Shown here piece after piece: positions 12,001-27,444 of a stretch of DNA of 64,000 bases. A model generated the notes under the pieces. It saw only the letters and a program-made list of their open reading frames with translations. It was not told the DNA's origin and did not search any database. Position 1 is the first letter of the stretch. The number at the start of each line of letters is the position of its first letter. The stretch covers positions 68,772 through 132,771 of the forward strand of contig JABIAG010000001.1 of the NCBI GenBank assembly GCA_018653365.1. The letters run 5' to 3'. This DNA comes from Candidatus Woesearchaeota archaeon (lineage in GTDB: Archaea > Nanobdellota > Nanobdellia > Woesearchaeales > JABIAG01). Both the position numbers and the translations under genes were made by a program.

Positions 12001-13464
12001 GAAAGCTTACCTGATCAAGAATACGACCTAACATATTACATAGAAGATGATCTAAGAGAAAGAGATCTTGAAAACGATACCGAATACGTATTAGAATCAA
12101 GAGCAATGAATGGAGTGGGAATTTGGAGTGATGCAATCGAATCTGACGAATTTACAGTAAACTGGGACATGACCCCAGCATCATGTAATGATGATAAACA
12201 AAATGGAAACGAAACTGATGAGGATTGTGGTGGAAACGAATGTCGATCATGTAGAGTAAGTGAAACCTGTACTGATGATGATGATTGCTTATCTGATAAT
12301 TGTGTTTTAGGTGTTTGTAAAACCCCTAGTTGTACTGATAATAAATTAAACGGAGACGAAACTTCTAAAGATTGTGGTGGAAGTTGTGTTGGATGTGACG
12401 TAGATGAACAATGTTTAAGAAATTCAGATTGTAACTCAAATAAATGTGATATTGCAAACGAATTATGTGAAGAAGATCCTTGTAATAATGGAATAAAAGA
12501 TCTGGGAGAGGCATATATTGATTGTGGAGGATCATGTATTCCAATAAGATGTGCAACAGGTAATCCTTGTACCCAAAATGGGGACTGTCTAAGTGGAAAT
12601 TGTAAAGACTTACAATGTGTAACCACATCAAGCGATACTGATAATGATGGAGTAACCGATCTAGATGATAATTGCATGTCTGTAGCAAATACTGATCAAA
12701 CAGACATAGATGGTGATAACAAAGGAGATGAATGTGATAATGACATTGATGGCGATAGAATGGACAATGACTGGGAAATAAGATATGGATTAAACCAAAG
12801 ATTCATTGGAGACGCAAATGGCGACATAGACCAAGATGGATTAACCAATGTACAAGAATACGATGAAGGAACAGACCCCACAAATATAGATAGTGATGGG
12901 GACGGAATGAGTGACGGAGAAGAAATAGCAAAAGGAAGAAATCCAAGAGTAGCAGACTCTTCAATATTAAAAACAATCTTAATCATACTTTTAGTTTTGG
13001 CAGCTCTGGGTGTAGTTGGGTTCATAGCTTACAAGAAATTCGCTAAGCCACCACTTTCCCCACCCTCTACACCACGAGCGCTAAAACCATTACCTAAAAA
13101 ATTACCTCCTTTAAAGAAAAAATTACCCCCAATGGGCTTGCGACCTTTAAGGCCAGCTTTAAAGAAGAAAATAAAACCTCTAACAAAAAAACCAATAGTT
13201 AGAAGAGGACTCCCACCAAAACTAAAAACCCTAAAAAAACCAATTCCAAACAAAAAACCTGTTAAGGAATACGTTAATTTAAATGAATTAGGTAAATCGG
13301 ATAAGTCTATAAAGAAACCGGCTAAAAAACAAGACGCATTATCTAAACTTAAAGAACTAGGACAAAAAACTCCAAGTGCTAAGACCAAACCAACAACTAA
13401 AAGTTCAACACCACAAAAAGATCCTTTTTCAAAACTAAAAAAGATGAAAAAAACAAAAAAATGA
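1..13464 (+). CDS. Giant surface/adhesin protein, 5'-partial (at least 4487 aa). Repetitive Ig/cadherin-like beta-domain repeats, then a Cys-rich 'DCGGxC' region (about 12180-12620), TSP3-like Ca-binding repeats (about 12637-12930), a single C-terminal TM helix (about 12964-13035) and a Lys/Pro-rich cytoplasmic tail
   Basis: The uninterrupted ORF runs from the window edge, so the real N-terminus is probably upstream. Recurring ~100-aa repeats carry conserved motifs such as 'AWDD..NGPVSS', 'CEDR.GN' and 'NITC.D..GN'. The C-terminus has motifs like DxDxDGxxDxxE/'DSDGDGMSDGEE', followed by a hydrophobic stretch 'ILIILLVLAALGVVGFIAY' and a KKLPPLKKKLPP-type basic tail. Confidence 0.8.
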   Translation: MNFYGKEPSPAVTGQFAYQPNTQLDVVLVEPVDGQKYNNLDDVFIRADTNIFGNPTGLTCFFSVSSPQFNPNQKNMDSSALISQTFSGYSSVFVHDGIPNYLIGEVGETYQVAVTCIFGSQAAFSPPSISILIDDTPPQITGLTVYDKRCDDVTKQVLPLYDPGTGAVYYAKETEICVESEITEALTEIESVELEYPSSTRDITANFKNTIPGNGILITATTLNLNLREGDEEEIILRAQDTIGNAPSTFTRKIILDQTPPVIDSIIINPTGSLGTPLMKDNKYIYKVADDEPLEISVTTDEPALIKLFEFSELDASSDYVTTDFLNTLLTIGEHTYKINATDRAGNLQTSQELEIVNDHIAPRVDAVANNKPSYFEIRGQNFGVLTPTLELYFRDATGIKYGNFTTYRMFRSGPNVDQAEKLTHEWLEVVPENLGNDQYKFTLDVASDLIPNEVYWDDFHYYIAYDVMDNLTNTGGENNSNHFNFGVNEEAPQLHSASLENQYWQNPKQTLILTYNDEPTKRDQHVKINRFEVIENSFTAAAMAKVDFENYDAYLEGEVIPNEGTGRRQFTITPNTEWTCSHCIFRLEEARIVLPTGEPANSAFQFGEILFYIDKNDSEIMEIELDADTNLLYNAEDLRLNAHMTEQTLSGIRTKDDTITLLVRFKDEKIIDGRETRNLTIKLDGTPIFNGEVESDRDEDTHSVYEKTQEITLVPGTNTITVQSTDLSGRQSTTFTRTLWLDEEEPTLSNLGFVYEDNIVDLSTTELVFKTNLVDFDLTGTYTTDDDATIYLDGTSYTTDGVQPSGAFTIPNIVLDQPSIGNEQENNFDIVIEDSVENKQITPLKVIVDKLAPELILVDTTNTELDLVGGNQIYYRYLSDDINLTVKSTTEGLAGCKMYFGGLPAADMTETITNEFFYETGTLVGNYDFYIVCEDNFGNQNQLDSSLWQYTDPVITGINPVLTQTLFIHPEDFENEFDLRITPVPNTNEIKCKYDFILDEGARPKLLDSNQNPIKLTYEEMQEDDEWEQIAFLPWGGKGKNTLREIIGAGYTTNYLSVNVTCKDRSGTEIDQKVDFEIDDDFNLQFKFDYPPTHEEVNWVADKKIRTGEMFSIIVNRPDAQCSVEGTPDIALLGNPTTINDPDYKLATRYEFEQTIDSGASGRPASVALPDDAQEFTVNCQILGQPIQTKTLEFIGDNTAPDVPQLNLVQTGYNKTTQTVRFTIDNLENVLENNMNDSVIKLQADNINGGPIYQDVEYNVSPDTLNNYVFEFVFEDLIKETLTGEVEEKYNFWVQAWDDLELGPVSSNILELTYDNKSPTIDSYVIENSVQNGNIYYVGSDPTITGTVSEVDSIITFDAFTTTGTTTGNDFIITKTLIDNADIIISLRSKDALENIGEETSEIILHKDLTGPTFVDATGSLSEGTGFEVTKFKELSQLLITFEDNSGFSAGQQPVLAKAERDSADVTGETTISYYGSLDENSNGFDERIIYEIELASGFTSPSATEASQYEFEVDVKDSFGTPTTFNFKFTIDPRVPEITVETEGRTSINEFKFNISDDSNNIETSTLTIELEGNEEGITNYDYADGCVISTPVTKHECTLTTPFTQSQTVTYEIYVEDDLANSNELTGQYEHDLTPISIDESTILIEGEDSSYDILADGKTNITFEIINNEPLEEITCSYSLDTDATYQQMIDAGTSEVVTIISDNLIKFLDIFNSVGSTEGAHTLYVSCKDESGNVNESIDIPFTVDTQIPAITNVELTTVGPHQGGRSGEDFLFETGNNVLTISGTYTSNDGIIVTTEAMGQTYTHTDVVSDGQFSLTTVVLETPSSGDAKEINELILNITDSAGNVNDTLKVNITLDKEKPNLEIVETSNALVGTVGNDLVYWTIANADVNLAVEANEYLETCAIHFSGLDETLTTKPADNKFTYSLANFGGISWDFEITCTDRYDNVETLYSTLKKYTESSFDEIELRVSPLIIDSPISDNFALEVLPKRAGSYLEDQELHGIQCEYDFIGLGALSEQSQFIINKEELYDNGKWELPANLPRSDGRGGNKLNTLTNAQYIVNATCRNLRGTKVNASAKFGINTEYDANFKFISPGVNEDAVHCEDCHAARKVVGGETIIILANKGDLSCNLDGTTPLTEGVLNGDVDFPLGVEFYFTLPNTGADGSSENTLEVTCISNADISDNQPKRLYYYEDNQAPQEDPVIILPSNRFNKTTQTVTVGITNLAALTEHNLHDALFIIHAKDLSNNNEYEKEFQINITTTEITFEFNELITDDPGMDAEKEYELWAEAWDDVSNGPVSSISAPLTMYFDNLDPVLSLEYTGVEGVNSLTARNIAIRLTEESNLDVTDGITPLITLTGAQDGDGYVFTPTEYKTYILKAEPTDLTGNKGEWSNTISLTYNDEAPEFRDELPSDNAIVGGTQVDFSISVEDENGLDTSTLQAFINGTPITPIPIITTSNVGTRGIITFTQLGMAAEPYNITVYLDDMLGNQGEFEWTVNTNNDAPTQPTWTVPQYTNNKLQPVTITFNELVVIDAADAVTINGEVITVPATPATTFTFTPTVDLMGDDEEKTINVVVNAHLSGGTGVDFPFTKTFTVDTIEPVVNTFESIPQETTVDLNEITLLGTFTETNLEKIEINKSTRIYAAKTYALTSFINESIELDPEENSFSVIVYDKAGNEGTATISRYYDNTVPEINAASLQIIGVTIEQDGTWIVSVEEGETITLTGTYTSTEEVTITTDINNGVVTVPPNADTFTIVGELDGTDGAEETNTITITIDDGTHITTTTLTIINDRQAPTATLVLPELGFTNDATPEIKISTDELATLCNITYQASETEMTSSGADFSYTFTTALAETAHTVLIGCEDERGNFETTPLEFTVDLTSPDFTTSFVNAELQTTDNFLLFSTDTTQLHIETFDVIKCKYKLSTETPYTPMSVNFGNSHTSQDLTLNNDEYIYNITCEDRAGNEKDKEVNLTVNTALQIQATANLNGESIKNNQPQVFIITDRPATCTPTGNGAYHTLDDTGIEITEFTTADATTHIAYLSSLASTPAPLNDGTYALPVTCQAQTTGINDGSINVQFTVDTNLDAPVITNFDDSTTIPIVTAYPDIQFTVNEEVNATIYVNNNFKQVLENIPAGTIHTFSNVHLANKGVNVITIKGVDAAGNENAASVLINLSTDNPVIDETKVRHPEHNALYGGINETYVYFNSDLAITNAEVTLIGDQGLIYNSGTIIIDNEQRKIIYNETGSLISDNYTFQINITDSAGRKSENNLIRFEIDTEAPVITVLSPNGDEVITSTTTTVTAISNKELEKATFTLNGQTQTLAPVIPPFTFTTQNLPEGRHEYEINGTRYCPTTNCGFNTGTYKNSFIIDITGPTYSNIEYSGGINHLVQIINENVDGYTYQEYESVPQSEMHPDLRTLGLENQLIAIYENNSNSEEVEITILEFETAQGVQEYLTLIQTYNSDLTSQNWAIRSNVIILSLNTDIIQKGYVLGAPFSAASVVDHLIRDVTPSITFFFDEPTTITYVLQDDSNAPKATSMVQNAAGTSFTITATENLMETNHKIILTASDVYGNPNTQEFSFSILAEPFAIELKEPLFGYTKEDATKVVIETSRQGDCKWTTNLDWNFDQAIAFDSASSTQHNITGFNRYNQDLKILCNDTGYSGTEITDMFRITRDTAELTAELFMDNVESLTGTLQAVSTVSGKTMICYYNESGIWNIFDGLNERIEDSYQAIQRQTFTVGDYLVDGRVNEISVLCKDKAQNAWTGSIDITVNTSRDFGLELIKPVVGFKTAESEVEIHAKTNRDASCKYRLDSGNLLGLATANDKDHTRTRGQLDSGTYNLQVTCEEMGSGTPAAENRTFYIDTTEPEMALVQIRNLIDDEYSYYENEIYFYVSAYDNESGITRFNITLYESGEDDPLTTLTFSNVDSKDVADDLADCLASADEDEDEREECYDETTLTGNEIDDVENCLEDEDEDFRVSKSEAKACVEESLPDQEYDLTYYIEDDLRERDLENDTEYVLESRAMNGVGIWSDAIESDEFTVNWDMTPASCNDDKQNGNETDEDCGGNECRSCRVSETCTDDDDCLSDNCVLGVCKTPSCTDNKLNGDETSKDCGGSCVGCDVDEQCLRNSDCNSNKCDIANELCEEDPCNNGIKDLGEAYIDCGGSCIPIRCATGNPCTQNGDCLSGNCKDLQCVTTSSDTDNDGVTDLDDNCMSVANTDQTDIDGDNKGDECDNDIDGDRMDNDWEIRYGLNQRFIGDANGDIDQDGLTNVQEYDEGTDPTNIDSDGDGMSDGEEIAKGRNPRVADSSILKTILIILLVLAALGVVGFIAYKKFAKPPLSPPSTPRALKPLPKKLPPLKKKLPPMGLRPLRPALKKKIKPLTKKPIVRRGLPPKLKTLKKPIPNKKPVKEYVNLNELGKSDKSIKKPAKKQDALSKLKELGQKTPSAKTKPTTKSSTPQKDPFSKLKKMKKTKK

Positions 13465-13970
13465 AAACGAAGGCACAAACACAAATGGTATTTGTATTCA
13501 TACTAATTGCAATAGTAATCGGATTGATAGTTCTATTCGCATATAAAGGAATAAGTAGTACAGTAAATACTTCAGAACAGGTCGTGGGAGCAAAACTAGT
13601 AACATCAATAAAGGCAGATGTTAGTTCACTAAGACGATCAAGAGGAAGTTCACAAATATTCGAGTACCAAGTTCCCGGCAAAATAACAAATATTTGCTTT
13701 ATACGAAGTTGTTCTGGAGACTGTAGTACACTTTATTCTGGATCACTGCCCATCGCGCTAAGTTCATACTCTGCAGACGATCCCCAAAAAAACATGTTCT
13801 TATTGGGAAAAGGGGATTTTGTTCTAGAAGCAATATCTTTAGGAAGTTTAGACGTGGATTATGACCGAGATGGAATCACAGATGATTTTCACTGTTTTAA
13901 AACTCCTGGAAGATTAAAAATAAGAATTCTAGGAACTGGCGCTAATGCAACAATTCAAAATGCTCAATAA
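13461..13970 (+). CDS. Class III signal peptide (type IV pilin-like) protein, 169 aa
   Basis: N-terminus 'MKTKA/QTQMVFVFILIAIVIGLIVLF': a short basic leader followed by a hydrophobic helix. The ATG overlaps the giant gene's stop codon (ATGA). Confidence 0.55.
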   Translation: MKTKAQTQMVFVFILIAIVIGLIVLFAYKGISSTVNTSEQVVGAKLVTSIKADVSSLRRSRGSSQIFEYQVPGKITNICFIRSCSGDCSTLYSGSLPIALSSYSADDPQKNMFLLGKGDFVLEAISLGSLDVDYDRDGITDDFHCFKTPGRLKIRILGTGANATIQNAQ

Positions 13971-14964
13971 AAAAGGAATGACCTCTACAGTTTTCAACTG
14001 GGTATTTATAGCAATAGCTGGAGCACTAATAATGCTATTCTTCTTTAAAATTATAACAACACAAACAGAAATAAGTGAAAACGAAATAACCGCGAGAATA
14101 GTAAAAGACATGGAAGATATATTAGTTGGAAAAACAATATCTACGGATTCGGCATCTGAAGTAAAAATATCTGAAAAAGACTTTGAATTCAAATGTGAAG
14201 AACCCTGTAATGAATTAACAGGGTGTAATTCTTGGCTTGGAATAAAGAAAGCAGAAAATAGAATAGAACTCAATACACAACCTGTTTTTACAATAGAAAA
14301 CTTACGATCTAGCAAAATATATGCATTTGCACAAGGATGGGATGTACCATTTCATACAGCAAACTTTCTTTACATTGCAGCACCAGGAGAAAAAATAGTT
14401 TTCCCAACAAATTGCAATACAAAACCCCTCTGTAATAAAATTTTTACACTAATACCTCAAAAATTAAAAGATGCAAGAATTGTAATAAAGGGCGAGGATG
14501 ATAAGTTATCACGATTTAAAAAATACATAGAATTCGAGGTTCCATCAGGGAATCCAACTCGAAAAAAAGAGGTAGTAATTGATGAAGCAAATCACCAAAT
14601 ACATTTTTATGAAAACGGACGACTTCAAGCATCAGAATACTATTTTCTAGAAGAAGCAATAATTGGGGCAGCATTCACACAAGATCATAAAACATACTCT
14701 TGTAATATGAAAAAAGCATTCTACAAGTTAAGAAATTTAGCAATAGTTTTAGAAGGCAAAAGAAGTTATCTAGAAATTAATGCCCCCGCAGATCCAGCAT
14801 TTTGCAGATCGCATTTCCTAACTACCCAAAACCAAATTGCGAGCTTTAACACATTATACAAAGACTTAGATACTGCAAAATTAGTAGAACTTAACACAAG
14901 AAAACAAGAATTAGAACACGAAAATAACGAGTTACGCAGAGGATCTTGCGCATCAGTATACTAA
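13960..14964 (+). CDS. Class III signal peptide (pilin-like) protein, about 334 aa. The track ORF starts at 13945; the likely start is at 'MLNKKG'
   Basis: 'MLNKKG/MTSTVFNWVFIAIAGALIMLFFF' is a canonical archaeal prepilin-like N-terminus. The extracellular domain contains several Cys. Confidence 0.6.
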   Translation: MLNKKGMTSTVFNWVFIAIAGALIMLFFFKIITTQTEISENEITARIVKDMEDILVGKTISTDSASEVKISEKDFEFKCEEPCNELTGCNSWLGIKKAENRIELNTQPVFTIENLRSSKIYAFAQGWDVPFHTANFLYIAAPGEKIVFPTNCNTKPLCNKIFTLIPQKLKDARIVIKGEDDKLSRFKKYIEFEVPSGNPTRKKEVVIDEANHQIHFYENGRLQASEYYFLEEAIIGAAFTQDHKTYSCNMKKAFYKLRNLAIVLEGKRSYLEINAPADPAFCRSHFLTTQNQIASFNTLYKDLDTAKLVELNTRKQELEHENNELRRGSCASVY

Positions 14965-14966
14965 AA

Positions 14967-15530
14967 ATGAAAAATAAACAAAGTCGAAGATTTTCAAAAG
15001 GACAACTGCACCTAATGGAATCAACCGTGGTAATGTTCGTATTTTTCTTACTCATAATGGTTGGGCTAACAGTATATTCTAATTATCAAAATGCAAAAGT
15101 AGAACGAATAAGAATTGAAACAAATGAACAAAAAGCAACACAAATAGCGAAAAGAATGTTATTCGCACCCGAATTAGAGTGTTCCAACAATAATGCACGA
15201 ACACTAGATTGTATAGAAATCCAAAAATTACAACCCTTTGTGAATCGCGTAAAACAAAGTCCTGCATATTATAGACAAGAATTTGGAAATTCAAGAGTGA
15301 GCATAAAATGGGTTTACTCCCCAGGATTTACAGGAACGTTTTCAGCACCTGAATTTTTTAGAGCAAACCCTACCGATATATTAGTCACTTCACCACAAAA
15401 AGAACTGTTTAATTTTAAAGCAGGAGGCGAAAGTCATAAAACGTTTACTTTCCCGATCCTATTATGGGATAAAAGACAGGTACCTGAATGGAGCTATTTC
15501 GGATGGTTGGAAGTAGAGGTAAACATATGA
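14967..15530 (+). CDS. Class III signal peptide (pilin-like) protein, about 187 aa. The likely start is the internal Met 'MKNKQSRRFSKGQ'
   Basis: 'FSKG/QLHLMESTVVMFVFFLLIMVGLTVY' has a KGQ cleavage-like site and a Glu at +6, which are the classic type IV pilin hallmarks. Confidence 0.6.
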   Translation: MKNKQSRRFSKGQLHLMESTVVMFVFFLLIMVGLTVYSNYQNAKVERIRIETNEQKATQIAKRMLFAPELECSNNNARTLDCIEIQKLQPFVNRVKQSPAYYRQEFGNSRVSIKWVYSPGFTGTFSAPEFFRANPTDILVTSPQKELFNFKAGGESHKTFTFPILLWDKRQVPEWSYFGWLEVEVNI

Positions 15531-16078
15531 ACAAACGTGCTCAAATGGAAATATTTGGACTCGCCATAATATTTGTAATATTTATACTTGGATTATTGAT
15601 TTTCTTAAAATTTAGTGGAGATGAACCGATAACTACTGCAGAAGATTTTGTAATGAAACAACTACCCACGCGAATGCTTCAAACCATGATGAAAACAACA
15701 ACAGGATGCAGAGAACAAGAAGTAGAAGTTCTAGTAGTTGATATTGCTTCGCATGTAAACCCTACCCCTCCTGATTATTGTACTGATATAAATGTTAATT
15801 CACAAATAAATTGTAATGGACACACAAGTTATGAAGAATTATTTGGAATAGGCAATGTAGTACCTTCAGTGTTTGCAAATAGTTTAGATATAGAAAAGAA
15901 AGATTACGAATTTATAATAAAAATGAAAGGCGGATGCGAAATTTACGCAATTAACTCAACCAATAGTTGTGCAAGAGCAAATAAGATAAGTGCAGAAACT
16001 TTTTATTTAACTTCCAATAGAGGGAAAGTAGAAATGATTATGAAAGTATGTGAAAATGTGGGGTATGCAAATGAGTGA
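15527..16078 (+). CDS. Class III signal peptide (pilin-like) protein, about 183 aa. The likely start is at 'MNKRAQME'
   Basis: 'MNKRA/QMEIFGLAIIFVIFILGLLIFL'. There are 6 Cys in the C-terminal domain. ATGA overlap with the upstream gene. Confidence 0.55.
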   Translation: MNKRAQMEIFGLAIIFVIFILGLLIFLKFSGDEPITTAEDFVMKQLPTRMLQTMMKTTTGCREQEVEVLVVDIASHVNPTPPDYCTDINVNSQINCNGHTSYEELFGIGNVVPSVFANSLDIEKKDYEFIIKMKGGCEIYAINSTNSCARANKISAETFYLTSNRGKVEMIMKVCENVGYANE

Positions 16079-16175
16079 TATAGTGGGACTGCCAATGTCA
16101 AAGTTTATTATACTAATAGCAAGTATAATTTTTATTACTTTAATACTTGTAGTTGTAGTGGGAATACTTAAATGA
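16071..16175 (+). CDS. Small single-TM protein (34 aa), not in the ORF track, translationally coupled between pilin-like genes
   Basis: ATG at 16071 overlaps the upstream stop, and the TGA at 16173-16175 overlaps the next ATG at 16172. The product is 'MSDIVGLPMSKFIILIASIIFITLILVVVVGILK'. Confidence 0.35.
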   Translation: MSDIVGLPMSKFIILIASIIFITLILVVVVGILK

Positions 16176-16966
16176 AATTATGCAATAAAAAAGGAAGTAG
16201 TTTAGTACAAACAACCCTGGCTAAAGTACTCATAACCATATTAGTTTTAATAGTGTTATTAGCAATAGTCTATGTCTGGCAAGAAGAAATAACTGGCGGG
16301 GCAGATTCTAAAAAATGTAAATTTGAAGTAGTCAGAGTATCACAAACCTCAAAGATTCCAGGAATCAAAGACAAATACTTAACAGCCTATTGTCCATCCA
16401 AGGAATTGGGAATTCTAAACTTAGGAAAAGATGGGGAACGAGAAATGAGGGGCTTGGCCATAGACTTAGTAAGTGAAATGGTAGATTGCTGGGACAAATT
16501 TGGAGAGGGCAAATTAAATCCGATAAAGGGGGAGACAAATACACAAAAAACACACTGTTTTGTATGTGCATCATTTAGCATGCCAGAGGAGTTACCCTCG
16601 GCAAAGTGGGGCGAGTTTGGAAAAGAGTTAGATATAGTATTAAAAAATAATGACAATGCAAGAAAGTTTTTAGCAGACACACTATCAAAGAAAAGTATAG
16701 ATCATTATGACCATCATATGCAAAAAGTTAGTGTGGATAATAATCTGATCCTCGCAGATAAAATTAAATATACTTATTTCTCCAACTTTCACCTACAAGC
16801 AGATAAAAGTTACCATCTAATAAACATCTTTGTTGTAAATAAAAAACAATTCCTTACAAACGCAGTACAAGAAGGAAAGCCAATAAACGAATATGAAACA
16901 GTAGCACGTTTGGCGTTTGTAGAAGAATCAAATTTTGAAAACGTATGTACACAATTAGAAAACTAA
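16172..16966 (+). CDS. Class III signal peptide (pilin-like) protein, 264 aa
   Basis: 'MKLCNKKG/SSLVQTTLAKVLITILVLIVLLAIVYV'. Cys residues in the extracellular part. Confidence 0.6.
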   Translation: MKLCNKKGSSLVQTTLAKVLITILVLIVLLAIVYVWQEEITGGADSKKCKFEVVRVSQTSKIPGIKDKYLTAYCPSKELGILNLGKDGEREMRGLAIDLVSEMVDCWDKFGEGKLNPIKGETNTQKTHCFVCASFSMPEELPSAKWGEFGKELDIVLKNNDNARKFLADTLSKKSIDHYDHHMQKVSVDNNLILADKIKYTYFSNFHLQADKSYHLINIFVVNKKQFLTNAVQEGKPINEYETVARLAFVEESNFENVCTQLEN

Positions 16967-16967
16967 A

Positions 16968-17852
16968 ATGGAATTCCTACAAAACAAAGCAGCACAAGCA
17001 ATACTAGCACTAATAATCATGGCATTATTAATTGCCATGGTTGTAGCAGTAAAAAATGCATCAGAAGAAGCAGCAGCTGCCAAATCCTGTGAAGCAAGCA
17101 TAAAAATACACACAGATCTTATAAAATTAGGAGTGCCAGCAAGACATAATGAAATTGATTGTCCTGCAAAAATGATAGAAATAAACGAAAAAAACGCACA
17201 ATTTGAGTTAGCAGAATCAATGAGAAAATGCTGGAACCAATATGGTAAAGGCAATTTAAACATGTTTAATGGAGAGGGCATATTTTGTTCTATATGCAAT
17301 GTAATTACGGTTGACGAACCAGTAGTTGTAGAAAACTTCGTTGAGTATTTAGCAAGCGCGTACGTACCTGGAAAAAGAACAAAATATTTAGCAGACATGG
17401 CCGATGTACAAACCGACAAGGCCTATGCTCTAGAGGGATATGAGGAGGCAATACTTCGAGATTCAGCACTAGAAGATTTTACAATAACAAAACAACAACC
17501 TTATGGAGTGATATTTGTTCAAGTAAAAGGATATGATAAATTAGGAAAGTATGTACGAACAGCTACAAATGTGTTGGGAGGGGCAGCAGTGGTTGGAACA
17601 GGCCTTTTAATAATGAAAGGGTCTACAACATTAAACATAATTCCTGGTTTTGGGACGTTAGCAAGTTGGATAGGCTATACTGTTGGTGGAGTACTGGTTG
17701 CAGGGGGAACAGTAACCACAATTGTTGCAGAATATTTTAATGTCTTAAATTTTGAACGTTATTCAGAAGTCGTATTGAGGCCATACACCGAAAAAACTTT
17801 AAATGAAACAATTGGATGTGACTACATACCTGTAAGAGTAATAGAAAAATGA
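16968..17852 (+). CDS. Class III signal peptide (pilin-like) protein, 294 aa, with a Gly-rich C-terminal hydrophobic segment
   Basis: 'MEFLQNKA/AQAILALIIMALLIAMVVAV'. The C-terminus 'GGAAVVGTGLLIMKG...GGVLVAGGTVTTIVAEY' suggests a second membrane-associated segment. Confidence 0.5.
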   Translation: MEFLQNKAAQAILALIIMALLIAMVVAVKNASEEAAAAKSCEASIKIHTDLIKLGVPARHNEIDCPAKMIEINEKNAQFELAESMRKCWNQYGKGNLNMFNGEGIFCSICNVITVDEPVVVENFVEYLASAYVPGKRTKYLADMADVQTDKAYALEGYEEAILRDSALEDFTITKQQPYGVIFVQVKGYDKLGKYVRTATNVLGGAAVVGTGLLIMKGSTTLNIIPGFGTLASWIGYTVGGVLVAGGTVTTIVAEYFNVLNFERYSEVVLRPYTEKTLNETIGCDYIPVRVIEK

Positions 17853-18001
17853 AACTAATAAACAAAAAAGGAAATTTTGGGTTCTTATCCAAATCCGCAG
17901 TATTATTCATTATAATTATGGCATTAGTGGCGATAATAGTTTACTTCTTAGTAAAATTTTTACCTAGAGGAATAGCCTTCGCGAGGATGTTCGGCAGATG
18001 A
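17849..18001 (+). CDS. Mini pilin-like protein (50 aa), not in the ORF track
   Basis: 'MKLINKKG/NFGFLSKSAVLFIIIMALVAIIVYFLVKFLPRGIAFARMFGR'. The start ATGA-overlaps the upstream stop and the stop overlaps the next ATG at 17998. Same NKKG leader as its paralogs. Confidence 0.45.
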   Translation: MKLINKKGNFGFLSKSAVLFIIIMALVAIIVYFLVKFLPRGIAFARMFGR

Positions 18002-18372
18002 AATCAGGAATATTAACAGCAGCAGTAATTATTTTAGTATTGGTACTGGCAATGGTAATGTTTGTTATTAATGGTAAAGTTGGGGGCGGACTTACAAGAA
18101 TACTCGGAACATCAGAAGATTACCAATACTGTGAAGAAACAAAAACAACAGCAAATGAGTTCAATTCAAATTTACAGGTGAAAATAAATGATGGCGATGA
18201 GGCCAGAAACTATTATGAATTTCATGCAAATGAGGGTTGTTTTAAAGATCCGTCAAATATAGAGTTAGATAAACAATTAAAATGTGATTTTTTTTGTGAA
18301 AATGAAAATTTTAGAGTGAGTGAAAGTATACAAAAAAGAATAACTCGCTTTTGTAAAAGTTGTAGAGGATAG
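17998..18372 (+). CDS. Class III signal peptide (pilin-like) protein, 124 aa, Cys-rich C-terminus
   Basis: 'MKSG/ILTAAVIILVLVLAMVMFVI'. The C-terminus carries 'C..C', 'CDFFCEN' and 'CKSC' pairs. Confidence 0.5.
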   Translation: MKSGILTAAVIILVLVLAMVMFVINGKVGGGLTRILGTSEDYQYCEETKTTANEFNSNLQVKINDGDEARNYYEFHANEGCFKDPSNIELDKQLKCDFFCENENFRVSESIQKRITRFCKSCRG

Positions 18373-18571
18373 AAACATTTATATAACATAAATCTTTGAT
18401 TTATGAATATAAATGTCCGAAAAATGGGATTAAGTTATTGCACATTTATATAATAAACTTAGTTATTTAGGAGCATAGATATTCAAAAAATAAAAATGGT
18501 TTTTCGATACATTTATATAGGAGAAAGGGGATAGAAAACATAATACCTAAAAAAAACTCGAGGTGTCAAGC
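18373..18571 (+). promoter_or_regulatory. Intergenic region with three copies of a 'CATTTATATA' TATA-box-like element upstream of the twin small pilin genes
   Basis: 'aaaCATTTATATAacat' (about 18375), 'caCATTTATATAataa' (about 18441), 'taCATTTATATAggag' (about 18509). 'AGGTG' lies before the ATG at 18572. Confidence 0.4.
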
Positions 18572-19127: not shown

Positions 19128-19202
19128 AAATTATTTTTTCTTTTTAACTTTATTCTCTAAGCAGATAGAAATATTTAAATAGGGTTAAGAGAATAAAAAG
19201 GT

Positions 19203-20710: not shown

Positions 20711-20715
20711 TAAAA

Positions 20716-23268
20716 ATGAAAAAAAGAGGGTTCTTAAGTCATGTAACTAATCTAATTCTCGCAGCAATAGTCATATTAGTAATAATTGTAATTGTAGCTA
20801 AATTCATGCAAGGACTCGGCGGAAACGAATTTCATCCCGGAAGTGAAATGACCCTGGAACGAGTAAAAGAACAAATTGACATTCTCATGGATTCTGAAGA
20901 AGCTTTTGCAGAAACCACTCTCAGATTTAGCATACACGAAGATTATTTATTTATGGCAGGAGACAAATCATCAATTAAGGGCATGCCGTTAATCCAGGCA
21001 ATGCTAGAAAACATTCCTAATCAGTATGCAGCATATAATCACGCAGAACCAAAATGCAAGGACCGATCTTGTGTTTGTATATTAAATCAAGATAACAAAC
21101 CATTATGCAAAAGTTTTCTTAATGAAATAACTTTTGTTGGAGAGGAAGGAAAAAATCCGCGTAGTCCACCATACCTGGGCTCACAAATTAGAGGCAGTCC
21201 GAATGGAAATGTAGCTCTTGCCAAATTTAACTTAACCACACTTTATGTTGCAAAAATAGTAATTGATGATGACAGATCTGGAAAACAAACATTTGTTTAC
21301 ATCACTCCCATAATGAGATCTGGAACCTGGGGACTGACCATAGAACAAATCAGGGCAAAAATGGCCACGTTTAAAGAAAAAATAGCAGCTGCAGCCTACG
21401 AAAAAAACTACGAACTTGTTTCATGCAGTACTGGCGCAAACGGATTTTATAGATCAACAGATGAAGAATGTTCACGATTATATCTGTCAGAAAATCATCA
21501 ACAACCCTTTTATCCCTCGCCATCATCACAAATAATAAGTTTAGGAAAACTAAAAGATTTCTATGAAGCAGAAGATAGGCTGTCCAAACCATATTGCTGT
21601 CAGGTAATAAATGCAGATACTGAATGTACTTCTCAAGCATTACAAGGTTATGCAACCTGTTCAGACACCCTAAGTTGTAGCAGCATAAAATACACTAATC
21701 CCCATAATGGCAAAGAATTCCCCTCAATTTCAATAGGTTCAAGAGGGTGCGATTTTACTTGCTGTTACGCATACGGAGCAAAACCTCGAATATTAGAATT
21801 TAACTCAGCAGTATATTGTGAAGATGAAATTAAAAACTATGAAGAAACTGATGTTGACTGTGGCGGAACAAAATGTGAAAAATGCGAATTAAACAAACGA
21901 TGTGAAGAAAATACCGATTGTGCTGAAAATTTAGTCTGTGAAGAAAAAAGAGATTACGAATTAGATGGGCGCGGGAGAAGATTAACCATTCCCGGCGGGT
22001 TCGTTTTTGAATGTAAAGGAGAAGAAAATCAATCATGTACTAATATTGCTGATTGTAAATTCGGATTAAAATGTAAAGATGAAAAATGTGTACTAAAAGA
22101 AGAGGGAGACCTATGCGAAGCACCAGAACATTGCGGAGAGGGATTAATCTGTGAAATGCGAAAGTGTGTAGATCTAGAAAAAAGAGAGGAAGAAGCTAGA
22201 TATAAACTATATGAAATCCAAATTCAGAAAGATTTTAACACATTTACTGCGGCTCCAATATATGCACCAGTAATTCTTCCTCAGGGTGAACAATTACCTA
22301 GTAATTATCGAGCACTAGGAATAGATTATTTTGAGCCAACAAAACCGTTTAGTTCAATACTCGATGGTGAATTAGTTTATCAAGATGGAACAATATGTGA
22401 AAAAGAGGGGTTATGTTTAAATGAGCTAACTTCTTGTGGTGAGGGATGTGAAGAATCAGAGTATTGTTGTTCATTTTTTGATAAGTGTATGAATTCAGAA
22501 AGTATAATTGATACATCACTCTATTATCAGTTTGAAGCGCCATTTTTAGATCCAGTTTATGTCAAGTTAGAAAATACGTGTTTACCAAAAGGGTACACTC
22601 CAGTGTTAATTTCAAGAGCGCCCTTTTTTTCTGTAAAAGAATATTCTGAAATAACTGATGCAGAATTTTTATTTAATGAAGATGAAATAAGAACCAAAGA
22701 AAGTTTAGAACTGGGAGAGGGAGGAAAATTATACTACTTTTTTAAAAAATCTAAAGATGGAAATGAATATGCCCCAATATATGTTGACGCAACTAAAATT
22801 GCAAATTTACACTATACCTTGGAACAAATAAAATATGGTAGTCAGGCATTATCAATATATTATAAAGATATTAAAGATGGAGAATTCATTTTTGAACCTA
22901 ATCAGGGAGCATGTCCAAAAGGGTATGGTTGTCATGATATTATGGAATATAACTGTAAATCTGAATTAACTTGTGAAGGAGACGAATGTTGTTCAACAGA
23001 TAGTTATTGTTGTGAATTTTCAGGAGAGTGCATTCCAAAAACAGCCTTTCAAAGTACTGATGAGTTTTATAGTTATGCCGGGCCATCAGAAGGATTCTTT
23101 TCAAAAATTGGAGAAAGATGCATTCCTCCCTTATCTTTAAAAACAAAAAGTTCAGAACCCTACTTCATAAAAAAAGATTATTCACAAATCTTAGGTTCAG
23201 AATTTGTTTTTTATCAAGGGGATGATTCAATACAAAAAGCTACAATTGAGGAACAACAAAGTGAATAA
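20716..23268 (+). CDS. Large class III signal peptide protein (850 aa) with EGF-like or Cys-knot-like repeats, including a 'DCGGTKCEKC' module
   Basis: 'MKKRG/FLSHVTNLILAAIVILVIIVIVAKF'. The region about 21810-22160 encodes 'VDCGGTKCEKCELNKRCEENTDCAENLVCEE...CKFGLKCKDEKC...CGEGLICEMRKC'. There are many CxxC/CC motifs. Confidence 0.6.
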   Translation: MKKRGFLSHVTNLILAAIVILVIIVIVAKFMQGLGGNEFHPGSEMTLERVKEQIDILMDSEEAFAETTLRFSIHEDYLFMAGDKSSIKGMPLIQAMLENIPNQYAAYNHAEPKCKDRSCVCILNQDNKPLCKSFLNEITFVGEEGKNPRSPPYLGSQIRGSPNGNVALAKFNLTTLYVAKIVIDDDRSGKQTFVYITPIMRSGTWGLTIEQIRAKMATFKEKIAAAAYEKNYELVSCSTGANGFYRSTDEECSRLYLSENHQQPFYPSPSSQIISLGKLKDFYEAEDRLSKPYCCQVINADTECTSQALQGYATCSDTLSCSSIKYTNPHNGKEFPSISIGSRGCDFTCCYAYGAKPRILEFNSAVYCEDEIKNYEETDVDCGGTKCEKCELNKRCEENTDCAENLVCEEKRDYELDGRGRRLTIPGGFVFECKGEENQSCTNIADCKFGLKCKDEKCVLKEEGDLCEAPEHCGEGLICEMRKCVDLEKREEEARYKLYEIQIQKDFNTFTAAPIYAPVILPQGEQLPSNYRALGIDYFEPTKPFSSILDGELVYQDGTICEKEGLCLNELTSCGEGCEESEYCCSFFDKCMNSESIIDTSLYYQFEAPFLDPVYVKLENTCLPKGYTPVLISRAPFFSVKEYSEITDAEFLFNEDEIRTKESLELGEGGKLYYFFKKSKDGNEYAPIYVDATKIANLHYTLEQIKYGSQALSIYYKDIKDGEFIFEPNQGACPKGYGCHDIMEYNCKSELTCEGDECCSTDSYCCEFSGECIPKTAFQSTDEFYSYAGPSEGFFSKIGERCIPPLSLKTKSSEPYFIKKDYSQILGSEFVFYQGDDSIQKATIEEQQSE

Positions 23269-24259
23269 AAAAGGAACTAGCGATGTATTTTTAGTAATAT
23301 TACAAATGCTAATTGTGGGACTAGTACTAGCATTTATGATAGCAAAAGTTGGAGCAGTAGATATAAGTTTTCTCAAACGTACAATTGTAGTGCAAAACTT
23401 AGGGATGGTAATGTCCGCAATCTCATTTCTACCTGGAAGTTTTAGTTATGCCTACCTAACAGAATATGACGAAAAAATGGCAGACTGGTTAAAATTTCCA
23501 GCAAAAATAAATGATAAAGATATTTTTTATGATGAAAAAGCTGAAAATGTAAATTCAGGAAATGTAAAATATCAATTATTTATGAATGACATTCAATACG
23601 ACCAATTAAACAGACTGGTGATGCTCAAGAAAAAAGCAATATTCATAGAAAAAGCAAATAAATTCATTACTTCAGATAAAGTAAACGAAGATCTCAGAAA
23701 GTTAGTTTGTGAAAAAGTAACTTATGATTTGAAAGTTAAATCACTAAATGGAGGAGATGAAACTAAGTTCTACACTGCAGAAGGCGAAGAAGTTACAAAC
23801 GTAAATGAAAATTACGTCAATATGGAAAAACAATACTTCCAGGAACAAAATCGCGTTTATCCGGGAAATAGGGGTTTAAAAAATGAAGACCAAGACGAGG
23901 CAACAATAACACAAAAACTAGCTGAACTAATTAATCCAGTAACTGATGTATTAATACAACCCGAAACACTTAGCGAAAAACATATCTTGTTAACTGTGGG
24001 GGAATATGAATCCACTAAAAATTTCATGATCATTTACGCACCAATAACAACCTTTGAAGACGATTATAAAATTGGATGCAACATACTAAATAATGTTTTA
24101 GACACAGAATTAAAAGATCAAATAGACGGAATAGCAATAATTCCCAGTTTAGGAAACCACATTATATTTGAAGTTGGAAACATGGCAAAACCAAACAACC
24201 CCCTTCTAATAAGTGAAGACAATCTAATGTTAATTGCAGAGGGAATAAAAAATGAGTGA
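23222..24259 (+). CDS. Class III signal peptide (pilin-like) protein, about 346 aa. The start is uncertain: 23204, 23222 and the GTG at 23261 are all in frame
   Basis: '...NKVNKKG/TSDVFLVILQMLIVGLVLAFMIA'. The NKKG leader is conserved with paralogs, and the GTG at 23261 would give 'VNKKG'. Confidence 0.5.
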   Translation: MIQYKKLQLRNNKVNKKGTSDVFLVILQMLIVGLVLAFMIAKVGAVDISFLKRTIVVQNLGMVMSAISFLPGSFSYAYLTEYDEKMADWLKFPAKINDKDIFYDEKAENVNSGNVKYQLFMNDIQYDQLNRLVMLKKKAIFIEKANKFITSDKVNEDLRKLVCEKVTYDLKVKSLNGGDETKFYTAEGEEVTNVNENYVNMEKQYFQEQNRVYPGNRGLKNEDQDEATITQKLAELINPVTDVLIQPETLSEKHILLTVGEYESTKNFMIIYAPITTFEDDYKIGCNILNNVLDTELKDQIDGIAIIPSLGNHIIFEVGNMAKPNNPLLISEDNLMLIAEGIKNE

Positions 24260-24770
24260 TGACGCACTACTTTACGATCAAACAATGTATATCATAAAAA
24301 TGATTTTTCTAGCAGCAACAGTAATCACAATAGTAGTCTTAACCTATGTTTTTTCATTTCAAACAATAAAAACAGACGTATTAGAGATACAAACATTAAT
24401 CGAAGAAACATATTCGTCCCCCCAAGTATTTGCATATCAAGACACATTAACAAAAAGAGCATATCCGGGCATTATTGATCTAGAAAAGTTCAAAACATTA
24501 AACCTCAATGAGATAATACAAACAAATAGAAATGACATCATAATGAAAGTACGCTTACTCGATGATGCTTCTGAAGAAGTAACCATAAAATACTTCATTC
24601 CTACTAAAGAGCCAACAGCCGAAGTTTTTCAAATAGCAGAGACACTAATTAAATACCCAGAAAGAACAACAACATTAACAGATTATCCTTTATTAAAACC
24701 TGTAACAATACTGAAAGATGGAGAAATGAAAAGAGGAACGCTAGAGTTTTATGCTATCAAACAAAAATGA
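24252..24770 (+). CDS. Membrane-anchored protein (172 aa) in the pilin-like operon. No KG leader
   Basis: 'MSDDALLYDQTMYIIKMIFLAATVITIVVLTYVFSF' has an N-terminal TM helix. It overlaps its neighbours by 8 and 4 nt. Confidence 0.4.
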   Translation: MSDDALLYDQTMYIIKMIFLAATVITIVVLTYVFSFQTIKTDVLEIQTLIEETYSSPQVFAYQDTLTKRAYPGIIDLEKFKTLNLNEIIQTNRNDIIMKVRLLDDASEEVTIKYFIPTKEPTAEVFQIAETLIKYPERTTTLTDYPLLKPVTILKDGEMKRGTLEFYAIKQK

Positions 24771-25408
24771 GAATGAATAAACGAGGAGGGGGACCCTCAG
24801 ATACAATAGTGTCTGTGTGGAGCGGGATATTTTGGGTATTTGTAATTCTTATATTTGTATTGTTATTCAATTTAAGATCTTGCGTGTCAGGACACGAAGC
24901 AGGAGAACAAGCAATAGAAGGACAATTAAGCGAGATGGTAGATCAACATGACATCATGTTAACATATTTAACAACATCATTAGATTATTGTGACAGTTTA
25001 GATGCAAAAACTAAAACATTAACACACGCAGAACTGATAACGTTTTTTATGAAAGGTGTTCCTAAATCTATTACTGAAAGGCAAGTAGAAAAAAATGATT
25101 ATGAAAAAAGATTTGAAAATAAGGAGTACGCAAGATACCTCAAAATTTGGTATGACTGCAACAAGCAATATTTTGGACCTGAAAAAACACTAAAAATCTT
25201 AGTAAACAATTATTACAAGTACCCTAATAGTTTTAAAACAAAACTGCCCTTTGAAAATAAATTAATTAATTTAGAACTAGTGTTTGATAAAGGGTCAAAA
25301 TTAGTTTTTGTCTTAAGTGAAGAAGAATTACAAAAAATACTTGATCAAGAAGACGCCGCAGAAGAAGAATCAACACTTGATTGGGCAGTTATGCACGGAG
25401 CACCTTAA
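24767..25408 (+). CDS. Class III signal peptide (pilin-like) protein, 213 aa
   Basis: 'MRMNKRG/GGPSDTIVSVWSGIFWVFVILIFVLLF'. Confidence 0.55.
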   Translation: MRMNKRGGGPSDTIVSVWSGIFWVFVILIFVLLFNLRSCVSGHEAGEQAIEGQLSEMVDQHDIMLTYLTTSLDYCDSLDAKTKTLTHAELITFFMKGVPKSITERQVEKNDYEKRFENKEYARYLKIWYDCNKQYFGPEKTLKILVNNYYKYPNSFKTKLPFENKLINLELVFDKGSKLVFVLSEEELQKILDQEDAAEEESTLDWAVMHGAP

Positions 25409-25416
25409 ACATTAAA

Positions 25417-27444
25417 ATGAAAAGATTAAACAAAAAAGGACTTGAAATCGCAGACCCAATGTTCGTAATAATCACAATAATCGCCTTAACAATAGTTTAT
25501 ATGAATGTTGGATCATCATTACCAGAAACAAAAATTGGGTCCAAACAAACAGATATCTTTGCAACAGTACAGGCAGCTCAAAACGAAATGTTCTTTTTAG
25601 ACCTGGGAGCAAAGTATGCAGGTATAAACTCAATTTATTCTCTTGCTTTAAAGGGAGGAATTCATGAAACAAACTTATGTGGAAATTATTATGGGAAAAA
25701 TCTTTGGAACTACAAAAATCCTGAAGACGAATACGCAAGTTGTTTACCTAATATCAAAACTGAATTAAAAAACGAGTTTGAAAAAACTTACAACTCTTTT
25801 CTAGCTAAAAATGGTGAAAATATAAATTATAAATATTTTCTAACTGCAACGCCCACATTAGAAATAAGAGGAATCTCTTTAGTAAACAAAGAAAAAAGTA
25901 TTGAACCTGAAAGAAAATATTCGTACAAACCAACCACAACACAAAAGTATAATTACAACTTTGAAGCATACAATAAAATTAACGAATTTATCACAGTATT
26001 AAATGAGAATTGCAACGAAAAAGAAAACATACAAGGTGGCAGCGAACTTACACTTTGTGTGGTAGATACATTATCAACATTTAATGAAGAACTAGACGAT
26101 TTCATCGAGATTAAAGCAGTTTATCCAACCGATTCTGATTTAGATTTAAACTTTCAACAATATCTCAAAGAATTAGAAAGAACCGGTTATGAAGAGTGTT
26201 ATTTTGATTTTCCCAAACTTAGCGAAGAATTTCCAATAACATACAAAATAGAAAGTTTTGTCGAAGAAAAAAGTTATTCAGAAATAAGTTTGTTATATAA
26301 TGAAAACAAGGTCCGAACTTCTAATTCAAACCTGATTTTTTTTATGATGAAAGCCAACCGAGAAAATAAATTTGAAAAATATCCCGGGAAAGAACTAAGT
26401 TATGATACTTCAAAAACTGAACTAACGTACGATTTCGAGGGAGGAAAACGAACAGAACCCACAGGGCTAGACTTTTTTAAAATAGATAAAAATAAAGCAG
26501 GATTTATACCAAAAAAAGAAAAAACCGATTATCTAACTTATCTAAAAAATAGGCCATGCAGTTATGAAAACAGAATGTTCATATTCGAATTAAAAGAAAA
26601 AGAACTGTACCCTAAAAAGGGAGAAATAATTTACTCTTTTGCTACCTATGTTGAAGATAAAAAAGAACCCTTCATATCAGCAGTTAAAGTAGAATCAAAA
26701 GAATTTGACGAAGGCACACTACTAATACGCTGGAAACACACCAATTCATTAGATCTAATGAACTATTCAATATTTGTTGATGGAACATTAGTTAAAAAAG
26801 TAATCCCCTGGAAAGATACAAAAGTATATGATTCAATTAATTGGGAATATGGAGATGAAAAACCGTTTAATACCTGCAAATTAGATAATAATGATGCATT
26901 CAAAAAGTGCGTTTACAGTTTTGGCAACACCTTCCAAGATCTGAACACTTATTATTTTAAAGACAGTAAGGAATGGGTATATGTATTAAACGGATTAGAA
27001 GACAAAAAAACCTACGATATTGTGATAAAAGCAACAGATGATGATGGAAACACTTTTGAAACTGAACAAAAACCAGGAATAAGCAAAGATACCCTTCCTT
27101 TTGCACCAATCGAATTTCAACTAACTAATGATCCACTAAGAACACATCCACAAACACAAATATACACTGGTGTGGTTGGAGCGCCTCTATTTACTTTATT
27201 TAACATGGATGGCACTCTTGGACTTGAGAGTATGGAGTTTAAGTTCGTTCATTCTAGCATACCCCTACAAACGTTTAATAAGGATAATTTAGACACGTAT
27301 TACCTGTTCGGAGCATCAGTTCCCAGCTATCATTTAGGAGTTCCAACACATTATCTGATAGTTCAAAAAGATCCCTCCTTAGACAATTTAAACTTGTTTG
27401 TAGAAGAAATGGGATATAAAACACAAACCATCCCTGGAGAATAA
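25417..27444 (+). CDS. Large class III signal peptide protein (about 675 aa). The track ORF starts at 25381; the likely start is 'MKRLNKKG'
   Basis: 'MKRLNKKG/LEIADPMFVIITIIALTIVYMNV'. The extracellular domain is long and mixed. It is the last gene of the co-directional array. Confidence 0.55.
   Translation: MKRLNKKGLEIADPMFVIITIIALTIVYMNVGSSLPETKIGSKQTDIFATVQAAQNEMFFLDLGAKYAGINSIYSLALKGGIHETNLCGNYYGKNLWNYKNPEDEYASCLPNIKTELKNEFEKTYNSFLAKNGENINYKYFLTATPTLEIRGISLVNKEKSIEPERKYSYKPTTTQKYNYNFEAYNKINEFITVLNENCNEKENIQGGSELTLCVVDTLSTFNEELDDFIEIKAVYPTDSDLDLNFQQYLKELERTGYEECYFDFPKLSEEFPITYKIESFVEEKSYSEISLLYNENKVRTSNSNLIFFMMKANRENKFEKYPGKELSYDTSKTELTYDFEGGKRTEPTGLDFFKIDKNKAGFIPKKEKTDYLTYLKNRPCSYENRMFIFELKEKELYPKKGEIIYSFATYVEDKKEPFISAVKVESKEFDEGTLLIRWKHTNSLDLMNYSIFVDGTLVKKVIPWKDTKVYDSINWEYGDEKPFNTCKLDNNDAFKKCVYSFGNTFQDLNTYYFKDSKEWVYVLNGLEDKKTYDIVIKATDDDGNTFETEQKPGISKDTLPFAPIEFQLTNDPLRTHPQTQIYTGVVGAPLFTLFNMDGTLGLESMEFKFVHSSIPLQTFNKDNLDTYYLFGASVPSYHLGVPTHYLIVQKDPSLDNLNLFVEEMGYKTQTIPGE

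Follow-up and report, generated by a model that had tools for sequence, protein, structure and literature searches.

A conserved, unannotated array of Woesearchaeal genes with class III-like N-termini, candidate subunits of a lineage-specific type IV filament

The archaeal prepilin rule places G, A or S at -1 and a charged residue at -2 of a processing site that precedes the hydrophobic domain, and the substrate sites of Methanococcus EppA read KGQV, KGQI, KGQL and RAQI (PMC4371748). Archaeal pilin genes can lie apart from their assembly genes, as Haloferax volcanii pilA1-6 are unlinked from pilB/pilC (PMC4371748). Pili have been imaged on ultrasmall episymbionts (PMC7906910), and a recent survey of type IV filament (TFF) systems reports systems 1 and 4A in DPANN/Nanoarchaeota, mentioning neither Woesearchaeota nor an array of the kind described here. 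In this study, we analyzed a stretch of 64,000 nt (hereafter the window) from Candidatus Woesearchaeota archaeon (assembly GCA_018653365.1, contig JABIAG010000001.1, positions 68,772-132,771 of the forward strand). It carries an array of 18 co-directional open reading frames (ORFs) on the + strand, g02-g19, which occupies about 14 kb (13461-27444) on the 3' side of a giant ORF, g01, that ends at 13464. What is new here is a large, conserved and so far unannotated Woesearchaeal set of putative type IV filament subunit genes, and we lean towards the view that the products of the array are the structural subunits of a type IV filament specific to the lineage, a pilus-like surface organelle of the Woesearchaeales. 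A search of the open-access literature gave no description of such a Woesearchaeal array or of a pilin with an amidase fold.

The N-termini of the array proteins were examined residue by residue. The initial annotation had noticed, on nearly all of these genes, a short basic leader ending in KG, KA or RG in front of a hydrophobic helix, and had read it as a class III signal peptide. The observation held, with a strict [KR][GA] motif right before an uncharged hydrophobic stretch of 20-25 residues in 14 of the 18 ORFs (KG in g03, g04, g07, g09, g11, g13, g14, g16 and g19; KA in g02 and g08; RA in g05; RG in g15 and g18), a relaxed site in two (MKSG in g10 and MNKNG in g12) and no site in the remaining two, g06 and g17. 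The reading is supported in part, as the N-termini fit the prepilin rule (PMC4371748) and the motif is conserved in orthologs. The sites KG/QL of g04, RA/QM of g05, KG/QG of g11 and KA/QT of g02 (the slash marks the putative cleavage position) can be equated with the EppA substrate sites. These four are the members with a +1 Gln in the window, and acidic residues occur at +3 to +6 without being fixed at +5. When the array was compared with the rest of the window, the motif was present in 16/18 array ORFs and in 2/31 other ORFs (Fisher p = 6e-9), and the Sec signal peptides found on the window's other secreted proteins (e.g. the minus-strand proteins of 720, 2145, 675 and 236 aa) are of the classic kind, in which the hydrophobic region is short and the site of the AxA type, indicating that the array motif is not a general habit of this organism.

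The comparison was extended to 80 RadA-anchored GTDB loci, 23 metagenome loci and 4 further contexts (loci are cited by L numbers), using tblastn, ORF calling and jackhmmer. Among 237 orthologs, 68% have G or A after the last K/R that precedes the helix, compared with 26% of other ORFs with an N-terminal transmembrane (TM) helix (p = 5e-18), and Q comes next in 30% against 8%, so that the positive-inside rule alone is insufficient to account for the pattern. The leader consensus of the orthologs is M-N-K-K followed by G (65%) or A (35%) and then by Q (40%), with a median leader of 5 residues. In 186 of 241 TM-bearing orthologs, [KR][GA] lies no more than 10 aa before the helix, and the motif is retained in orthologs that are otherwise 20-30% identical. 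The residues past the site are also conserved in some families, reading QMEIxGLxII in g05, QxQMxES in g04 and xIExQFNWIFVLxAGA in g03. Judged from these sequences, the N-terminal motif is under selection.

The initial annotation had regarded the locus as unusual, which does not apply within its lineage, since the array is part of a conserved and widespread Woesearchaeal synteny block. The collinear order g02-g05, g07-g10, g11-g12, g13-g15, g16-g19 and RPA-YdjM was found in dozens of loci, at 20-35% identity. Motif-bearing ORFs make up 136/709 of the ORFs upstream of RadA and 21/658 of those downstream, and near RadA they occur only where RPA is upstream. A profile of the g05 family gathered 105 clusters at 90% identity, all without annotation, and its HMMER scan of 1.84 billion proteins returned 2,335 representatives at 50% identity, 1,395 of them with E <= 1e-10. 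For g19, a homolog search gave only two close relatives, and a scan of the GTDB genomes gave none. Comparison of the ectodomain families with hhalign identified g07/g08 and g11/g12 as the only paralogs, the other families being unrelated, and on this ground a single paralogous expansion was rejected. One shared N-terminal module is thus carried by at least 14 unrelated ectodomains, and a shared module on diverse predicted heads is the pattern of pilin families. Since the same unannotated set of genes recurs in the same order across the lineage, the array probably builds an attachment filament. As separate observations on this block, the order array-RPA(DUF2240)-YdjM-(small Alba-like ORF)-RadA (27479-33904 in the window; L002-L081) is present in about half of the Woesearchaeal loci examined, with no functional reason apparent, and in L098 (8984-9806) three small ORFs, by eye resembling a nucleotidyltransferase/HEPN toxin-antitoxin pair, lie between the g05 and g11 homologs.

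Within the array, the g11 family is the most conserved (65-70 ORFs in 36 loci). The start of g11 is most likely ATG 18572 rather than GTG 18563, because a GAGGTG ribosome-binding site lies upstream of this ATG (18560-18565, 6 nt before it) and both ATG and GAGGTG are conserved in relatives. In the promoter region in front of g11, the three ACATTTATATA copies are exactly 67 bp apart, no further exact copy exists in the 64 kb, and relatives have one TATA box at this place. The last copy holds the TATA box 18512-18519, about 60 nt before the g11 ATG, and the arrangement of TATA box and GAGGTG is found 5' of the g11 ortholog in nine relatives (L002, L064, L084, L085, L088, L090, L095, L098 and L102). 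We infer from this promoter arrangement that g11 and g12 form a separately and strongly expressed unit, which is what a shaft subunit would call for. Being small, and with a conserved TATA box and ribosome-binding site of its own, g11 is the best candidate, and a likely one, for the major subunit. Its AlphaFold2 model, built on a 2-sequence alignment and of low confidence (predicted local distance difference test, pLDDT, 65), shows a continuous helix over residues 9-45.

The features of the locus are collected in Table 1. An earlier count of about 19 pilin-like genes stood as to the co-directional array at 13461-27444 and not as to the number, as we counted 18 ORFs including the micro-ORFs g06 (34 aa) and g09 (50 aa). 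With corrected starts, ten junctions are overlaps (six of 4 nt of the ATGA type, three of 8 nt and one of 11 nt) and six are gaps of 1-8 nt, which agrees with the tight junctions claimed before, except at two wider gaps, one of 199 nt in front of g11 and one of 75 nt in front of g13. The reported overlap of the first array gene with the stop of the giant ORF proved exact (ATGA at 13461-13464). The RPA gene (27479) lies directly 3' of g19, as it does in relatives.

Table 1. Coordinates of g01, the array genes and the two wider intergenic regions in the window (slash, putative cleavage position)
Feature	Coordinates	Strand	Description
g01	1..13464	+	C-terminal 4487 aa of giant surface protein
g02	13461..13970	+	169 aa; MKTKA/QTQMVFVFILIAIV; first of g02-g05 module; ATGA overlap with g01 stop
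g03	13960..14964	+	334 aa; MLNKKG/MTSTVFNWVFIAIAGA; family helix FNWIFVLxAGA conserved
g04	14967..15530	+	187 aa; ...RRFSKG/QLHLMESTVV; family consensus [KR][GAS]/QxQMxES
g05	15527..16078	+	183 aa; MNKRA/QMEIFGLAII; 6 Cys
g06	16071..16175	+	34-aa single-TM micro-protein; no KG site
g07	16172..16966	+	264 aa; MKLCNKKG/SSLVQTTLAKVLITILVL; g08 paralog (hhalign 98.8%)
g08	16968..17852	+	294 aa; MEFLQNKA/AQAILALIIMAL; extra hydrophobic segments at C-terminus
g09	17849..18001	+	50 aa; MKLINKKG/NFGFLSKSAVLFIIIMAL; helix-only pilin-like peptide; conserved in 8 loci
g10	17998..18372	+	124 aa; MKSG/ILTAAVIILVLVL, relaxed site; 6 Cys
Intergenic promoter region	18373..18571	+	three exact ACATTTATATA copies, at 18375, 18442 and 18509
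g11	18572..18838	+	88 aa; MEKG/QGLSITTIVVAAIALLILVVL, then small 6-Cys head of ~45 aa
g12	18846..19127	+	93 aa; MNKNG/VAIGVTTIVIVVIALLVL, relaxed site; g11 paralog (hhalign 98.4%)
g12-g13 gap	19128..19202	+	T-rich terminator-like tract ~19128-19157; TATA-like TTTAAATA box 19174-19181, 29 nt before g13 (functions putative)
g13	19203..20144	+	313 aa; MKKKG/AIGAALVLVGVMIVV; 10 Cys
g14	20147..20710	+	187 aa; ...LINQKG/VLGEGGVRLMVIIVLVLL; 14 Cys
g15	20716..23268	+	850 aa; MKKRG/FLSHVTNLILAAIVILV; 48 Cys; large modular pilin-like protein
g16	23261..24259	+	332 aa; GTG start; (M)NKKG/TSDVFLVILQMLIVGL, spacer, degenerate Amidase_3-fold domain
g17	24252..24770	+	172 aa; N-terminal TM helix without KG site; begins MSDDALLYDQTMY
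g18	24767..25408	+	213 aa; MRMNKRG/GGPSDTIVSVWSGIFWVFVIL
g19	25417..27444	+	675 aa; MKRLNKKG/LEIADPMFVIITIIAL; last array gene, most widely retained member; weak FN3-like signal

Several of the ectodomains are rich in Cys (48 in g15, 14 in g14 and 6 in the 88-aa g11), which implies an extracellular location. About 9 kb past the 3' end of the window, a DsbA/thioredoxin-like gene was seen (L105, 1418-2080) with an Orc1/Cdc6 gene near it; its product could serve disulfide formation in Cys-rich surface proteins. A micro-ORF of about 30 aa occupies the g06 position also in L084, L085 and L095. Orthologs of g17 (L064 5330, L047 3349 and L013 4462) start with MNKKA or MNRKA, and the leader is lost in the g17 of the window, a subunit whose processing may have ceased in this genome.

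In public records all array proteins are named 'hypothetical protein', and identical proteins are present in more than 50 assembly blocks and in NCBI metagenome-assembled genomes (MAGs) of Candidatus Woesearchaeota. The public gene calls omit the 50-aa g09 and begin g04 at an internal Met, by which the KG/Q site is lost. The window lies within a 605-kb ENA contig, and identical proteins were found on contigs of up to 1.11 Mb. The flanking genes are archaeal housekeeping genes (RPA/DUF2240, RadA, RadB-like, S2 and aIF5B), RadA is 63-76% identical to proteins of Woesearchaeota/Nanoarchaeota MAGs, and an identical fragment is present in a marine metagenome. The organism is accordingly a marine Woesearchaeote, as the earlier guess of a DPANN archaeon had foreseen.

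The giant ORF, given before as at least 4487 aa, corresponds to a public gene call of 7512 aa, of which the window holds the C-terminal 4487 aa. The protein has immunoglobulin (Ig)-like domains (Big_13 and Big_3_2), Cys-rich modules from about 12184 and TSP3-like Ca-binding repeats from about 12634, followed by a TM helix (12964-13032) and a 143-aa cytoplasmic tail (13033-13461) with 29% Lys, 17% Pro and two D[AP][LF]SKLK motifs. Big proteins of the same C-terminal design lie directly 5' of g02/g03 in L065, L085, L090, L091, L095 and L108, and counterparts with visible N-termini have Sec signal peptides. In other relatives the array begins at g03 after unrelated genes, so the link between the giant protein and the array is recurrent and not obligatory. 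By its predicted topology, g01 is a membrane-anchored adhesin and not a subunit inserted by a pilin helix. The earlier proposal that it serves as the tip or cargo of the filament found no support; the C-terminal TM anchor makes a pilin-type tip role unlikely, and the counterparts are Sec-dependent.

Further large surface proteins were observed around these loci. The Lys/Pro-rich tails of big type I surface proteins share a repeated amphipathic motif D-[AP]-[FL]-[SK]-[KR]-L-[KR]-x-[LM], often right at the C-terminus (e.g. DPFSKLKKMKK, DAFSKLRKLKK and DDAFKRLERMKEK). It occurs in the window at 13333-13461 (g01) and 46672-47382 (-) and in L085 2-766, L095 1-4730, L091 3-1274 and L108 2858-7939, and a partner in the cytoplasm may dock on it. 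A second block of giant surface proteins (35511-47382, minus strand), which are Sec-dependent, encodes proteins of 720 aa (Big_13), 2145 aa (YadA-head repeats), 675 aa (collagen-like) and 236 aa (TSP3). At its 3' end sits a 331-aa PKD-domain protein (34519-35514, minus strand) that begins MKQMKKG/SISISTTLIVVLIIAII, the sole class III-like N-terminus outside the array. In L098 (398-4123, minus strand; 12007-14928) and L102 (4366-8070), proteins of 970-1240 aa with class III-like N-termini (MKKRGQ...) lie in or beside the array, one of them matching the Cys-rich Cu-binding_MopE motif, which shows that giant pilin-like adhesins exist in the lineage.

Matches to Amidase_3 at the g16 position were first seen in the gene calls of two relatives. 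PF01520 (Amidase_3) is matched by 5/14 g16 orthologs (best E = 1.8e-16), and the g16-family profile covers the full catalytic domain of solved N-acetylmuramoyl-L-alanine (MurNAc-L-Ala) amidases (4rn7_A, E = 1.8e-7; LytH, 7tj4_B, 9e-6; CwlV). The g16 of the window has no Pfam match when searched alone, and it matches the canonical ortholog of L047 directly (E = 4.4e-8); its GTG start at 23261 restores the (M)NKKG leader. It keeps the catalytic Glu (FEVGN) and lacks both zinc-binding His residues, and the full H/E/H/E set of zinc ligands and catalytic Glu is present in only 2/14 orthologs (L047 and L107). Since both zinc-binding His residues are lost, we do not file it as an active amidase; it probably has no catalytic function and forms a module, perhaps for wall binding, on a pilin-like stem. 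To our knowledge, the Woesearchaeota have no murein of their own, and the g16 head would be directed at bacterial walls. Some Woesearchaeota have been proposed to possess lytic transglycosylases and to prey on bacteria (PMC9723730, PMC12352652). Elsewhere in the window (60547-61239, minus strand), a 230-aa protein has a Peptidase_C92/NlpC-P60 (cell-wall peptidase-like) domain, which is of interest beside the amidase-fold g16.

Here, we need to consider the points that weigh against a type IV filament. First, several members have charged residues 2-8 positions past the putative site, and g06 and g17 are without a site. Second, the Pfam models Class_IIIsignal, Pilin_N and Arch_flagellin and the NCBIfam class III, pilin and archaellin models match none of the array proteins and none of 211 orthologs. 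Over Pfam and NCBIfam as a whole, no array protein has a match above threshold, only weak chance matches to CTXphi pIII-N1, big defensin and Tcp10_C. Third, no ATPase of the type II secretion system (T2SS)-E family, no T2SS-F platform protein and no A24 peptidase was found in the window by Pfam on 30 flanking ORFs and motif scans, as had been noted before, and no machinery was found in the 8 kb past the 3' end of the window (record coordinates 133664-154236) or beside the array in any relative examined. This absence is not remarkable in itself, since pilin genes that lie apart from pilB/pilC are known in archaea. A hunt for machinery genes by their Walker-A and GxGDxK motifs, in the window and in 104 loci, gave only UvrA, RadB-like proteins and one A24 peptidase, a typical one (FDLKTREVPNW...GGGDAKLL) of a Woesearchaeal relative (L078, 7344-8177). 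Finally, the structural check of the ectodomains yielded one confident model, that of g05 (103-sequence alignment; pLDDT 88; predicted template modelling score 0.75), yet fold searches with it returned no pilins. In this model, a TM helix (9-30) and a helix at 36-56 are followed by short helices and an alpha/beta head whose antiparallel sheet has four strands. The N-terminal helix together with such a sheet is a point in favour of the filament, and the break at residues 31-35, which separates the first two helices, is a feature that a plain membrane anchor would share. Profile searches of the PDB with the g05, g11, g19, g03 and g07/08 families gave nothing significant, only weak FN3-like signals for g19.

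Some of these points suit a second explanation, which we regard as a serious but less likely possibility. The proteins, processed as class III substrates or left unprocessed, would form no long pilus and would instead make up a short pseudopilus, a bindosome-like structure or an envelope scaffold that holds heads of adhesive and enzyme-like type at the cell surface and may also organise the giant adhesin there. The very many distinct subunits fit such a structure, as the bulky members of 850, 675, 334 and 332 aa are hard to pack in a filament; the helix break of the g05 model suits an anchor, no machinery is linked to the array, and in the Sulfolobus bindosome there is a known case of class III proteins outside classical pili. 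However, g11 and g12 resemble dedicated polymer subunits, being tiny, the most conserved, and provided with their own strong promoter and ribosome-binding site, and a pseudopilus would require the same machinery as a pilus. We consider it quite unlikely that the array encodes ordinary envelope proteins with uncleaved type II signal anchors, in which KKG reflects the positive-inside rule and a habit of the lineage with no peptidase involved. The failure of every profile to recognise a class III signal, the fold searches without pilins, the lack of a peptidase in the window and the 8 kb past it, and the members without a site (g06, g17 and some orthologs) are what one would expect in that case, but it leaves unexplained the excess of G/A at -1 over the control ORFs, the +1 Gln, the uniform 5-residue leader and the identity with EppA sites, and the lineage does have an A24 peptidase. 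That the array belongs to an integrated virus or a mobile element, or arose as an ORF-calling artefact in AT-rich DNA, as orphan proteins without annotation and weak sub-threshold matches to phage pIII-N1 and baculovirus families might suggest, is hardly credible and was rejected, given the stable position beside RPA-YdjM-RadA in dozens of genomes, the collinear order with one family of 2,335 cluster representatives, a GC content equal to that of the flanks, and no integrase genes, tRNA genes or repeats found.

If the array encodes a type IV filament, we suggest that it would be built as follows. Each array protein would start with a very short basic leader (consensus MNKK[G/A]) and be inserted by Sec, and a class III (A24) prepilin peptidase would cut before the hydrophobic helix, through which an ATPase and a platform protein encoded elsewhere in the genome would polymerise the subunits. 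The products of g11 and g12, with tiny disulfide-bonded heads and their own transcription unit, would form the filament shaft, the conserved modules g02-g05 and g16-g19 would provide minor-pilin priming or tip complexes, and heads for adhesion or wall binding would come from the large Cys-rich g13-g15 and g19 and from the amidase-fold g16. The giant, co-transcribed Ig-like protein would be a separate membrane-anchored adhesin produced together with the filament, and the whole locus would serve as an attachment apparatus for contact with other cells. A bolder version, which we think unlikely but worth stating, is that g16-g19, the most conserved minor-subunit module, places a peptidoglycan-amidase-fold head on a type IV filament for host or prey contact that, together with the giant Ig-like adhesin, grips bacterial walls and in some lineages cuts them, the head being catalytically intact in those lineages and reduced to a binding module in others. 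If this were true, it would point to bacteria and not archaea as the organisms with which many Woesearchaeota are partnered, and would put names to the proteins at the site of contact.

We know of no cultured member of the Woesearchaeota, and little is known of how DPANN archaea attach to their partners and exploit them. The present analysis groups 18 'hypothetical proteins' as one defined gene set that spans the lineage and comprises at least 14 families, one of them with more than 2,000 cluster representatives. It offers a testable architecture with a major-subunit candidate that has its own promoter, two minor-subunit modules, large Cys-rich heads and a recurrent link to a giant adhesin, and thereby targets for metaproteomics, for labelling in cryo-electron tomography and for heterologous assays. 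The amidase-fold member hints at bacterial cell walls as a target. Current profile libraries and TFF finders appear to overlook many archaeal pilin-like proteins.

Among known systems, the Epd pili of Methanococcus maripaludis (TFF system 1, EpdA-E) have the same site signature, KGQV/KGQI/KGQL/RAQI there and KKG/Q and KRA/Q here, short leaders, and several minor pilins with a small major pilin in one pilus, and the recent survey reports system 1 (Epd type) in DPANN. In contrast to the Epd pili, with which no sequence or profile similarity was detected, the array has 16-18 subunit genes against about five, +1 Gln at only about 40% of sites and Cys-rich heads, and the genes for ATPase, platform protein and peptidase, which lie inside the epd locus, are absent from the array. 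The adhesion pilins of H. volcanii (PilA1-6 and dispersed FlaFind-positive genes), which are defined by a conserved hydrophobic domain (PMC4371748), share with the array the separation of pilin genes from pilB/pilC; they are dispersed paralogs with one head type, whereas the array is one collinear operon with at least 14 unrelated head families.

The bacterial fimU-pilVWXY1E and T2SS GspG-K sets are similar in that a four-gene pilin-like block, here g02-g05, stands beside a very large adhesin gene and that the major subunit is separate and highly expressed, as predicted here for g11. The idea of a priming or tip complex, drawn in part from PMC7541494, is common to both. No homology to these sets was shown, and the giant protein is C-terminally TM-anchored and, in relatives, Sec-dependent, and is not a PilY1-type beta-propeller carried by minor pilins. 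It is also unlike a PilY1-like tip adhesin in having its own C-terminal TM anchor and cytoplasmic tail, and only Ig-like and TSP3 domains were found in it. With the Amidase_3 (PF01520) amidases CwlV, LytH and AmiC, the g16-family profile aligns over the whole catalytic domain; the g16 domain differs from these enzymes in that a class III-like N-terminus precedes it, in that the organism lacks murein, and in the absence of both zinc His residues. The context is archaeal here, unlike that of the modular pilin PilB of Streptococcus sanguinis, and an amidase-fold module on a pilin-like protein is undescribed in the open-access literature searched, but the design is alike, a pilin-like N-terminus fused to an unrelated module, here an Amidase_3 fold in g16, with g15 and g19 as large adhesin-like proteins.

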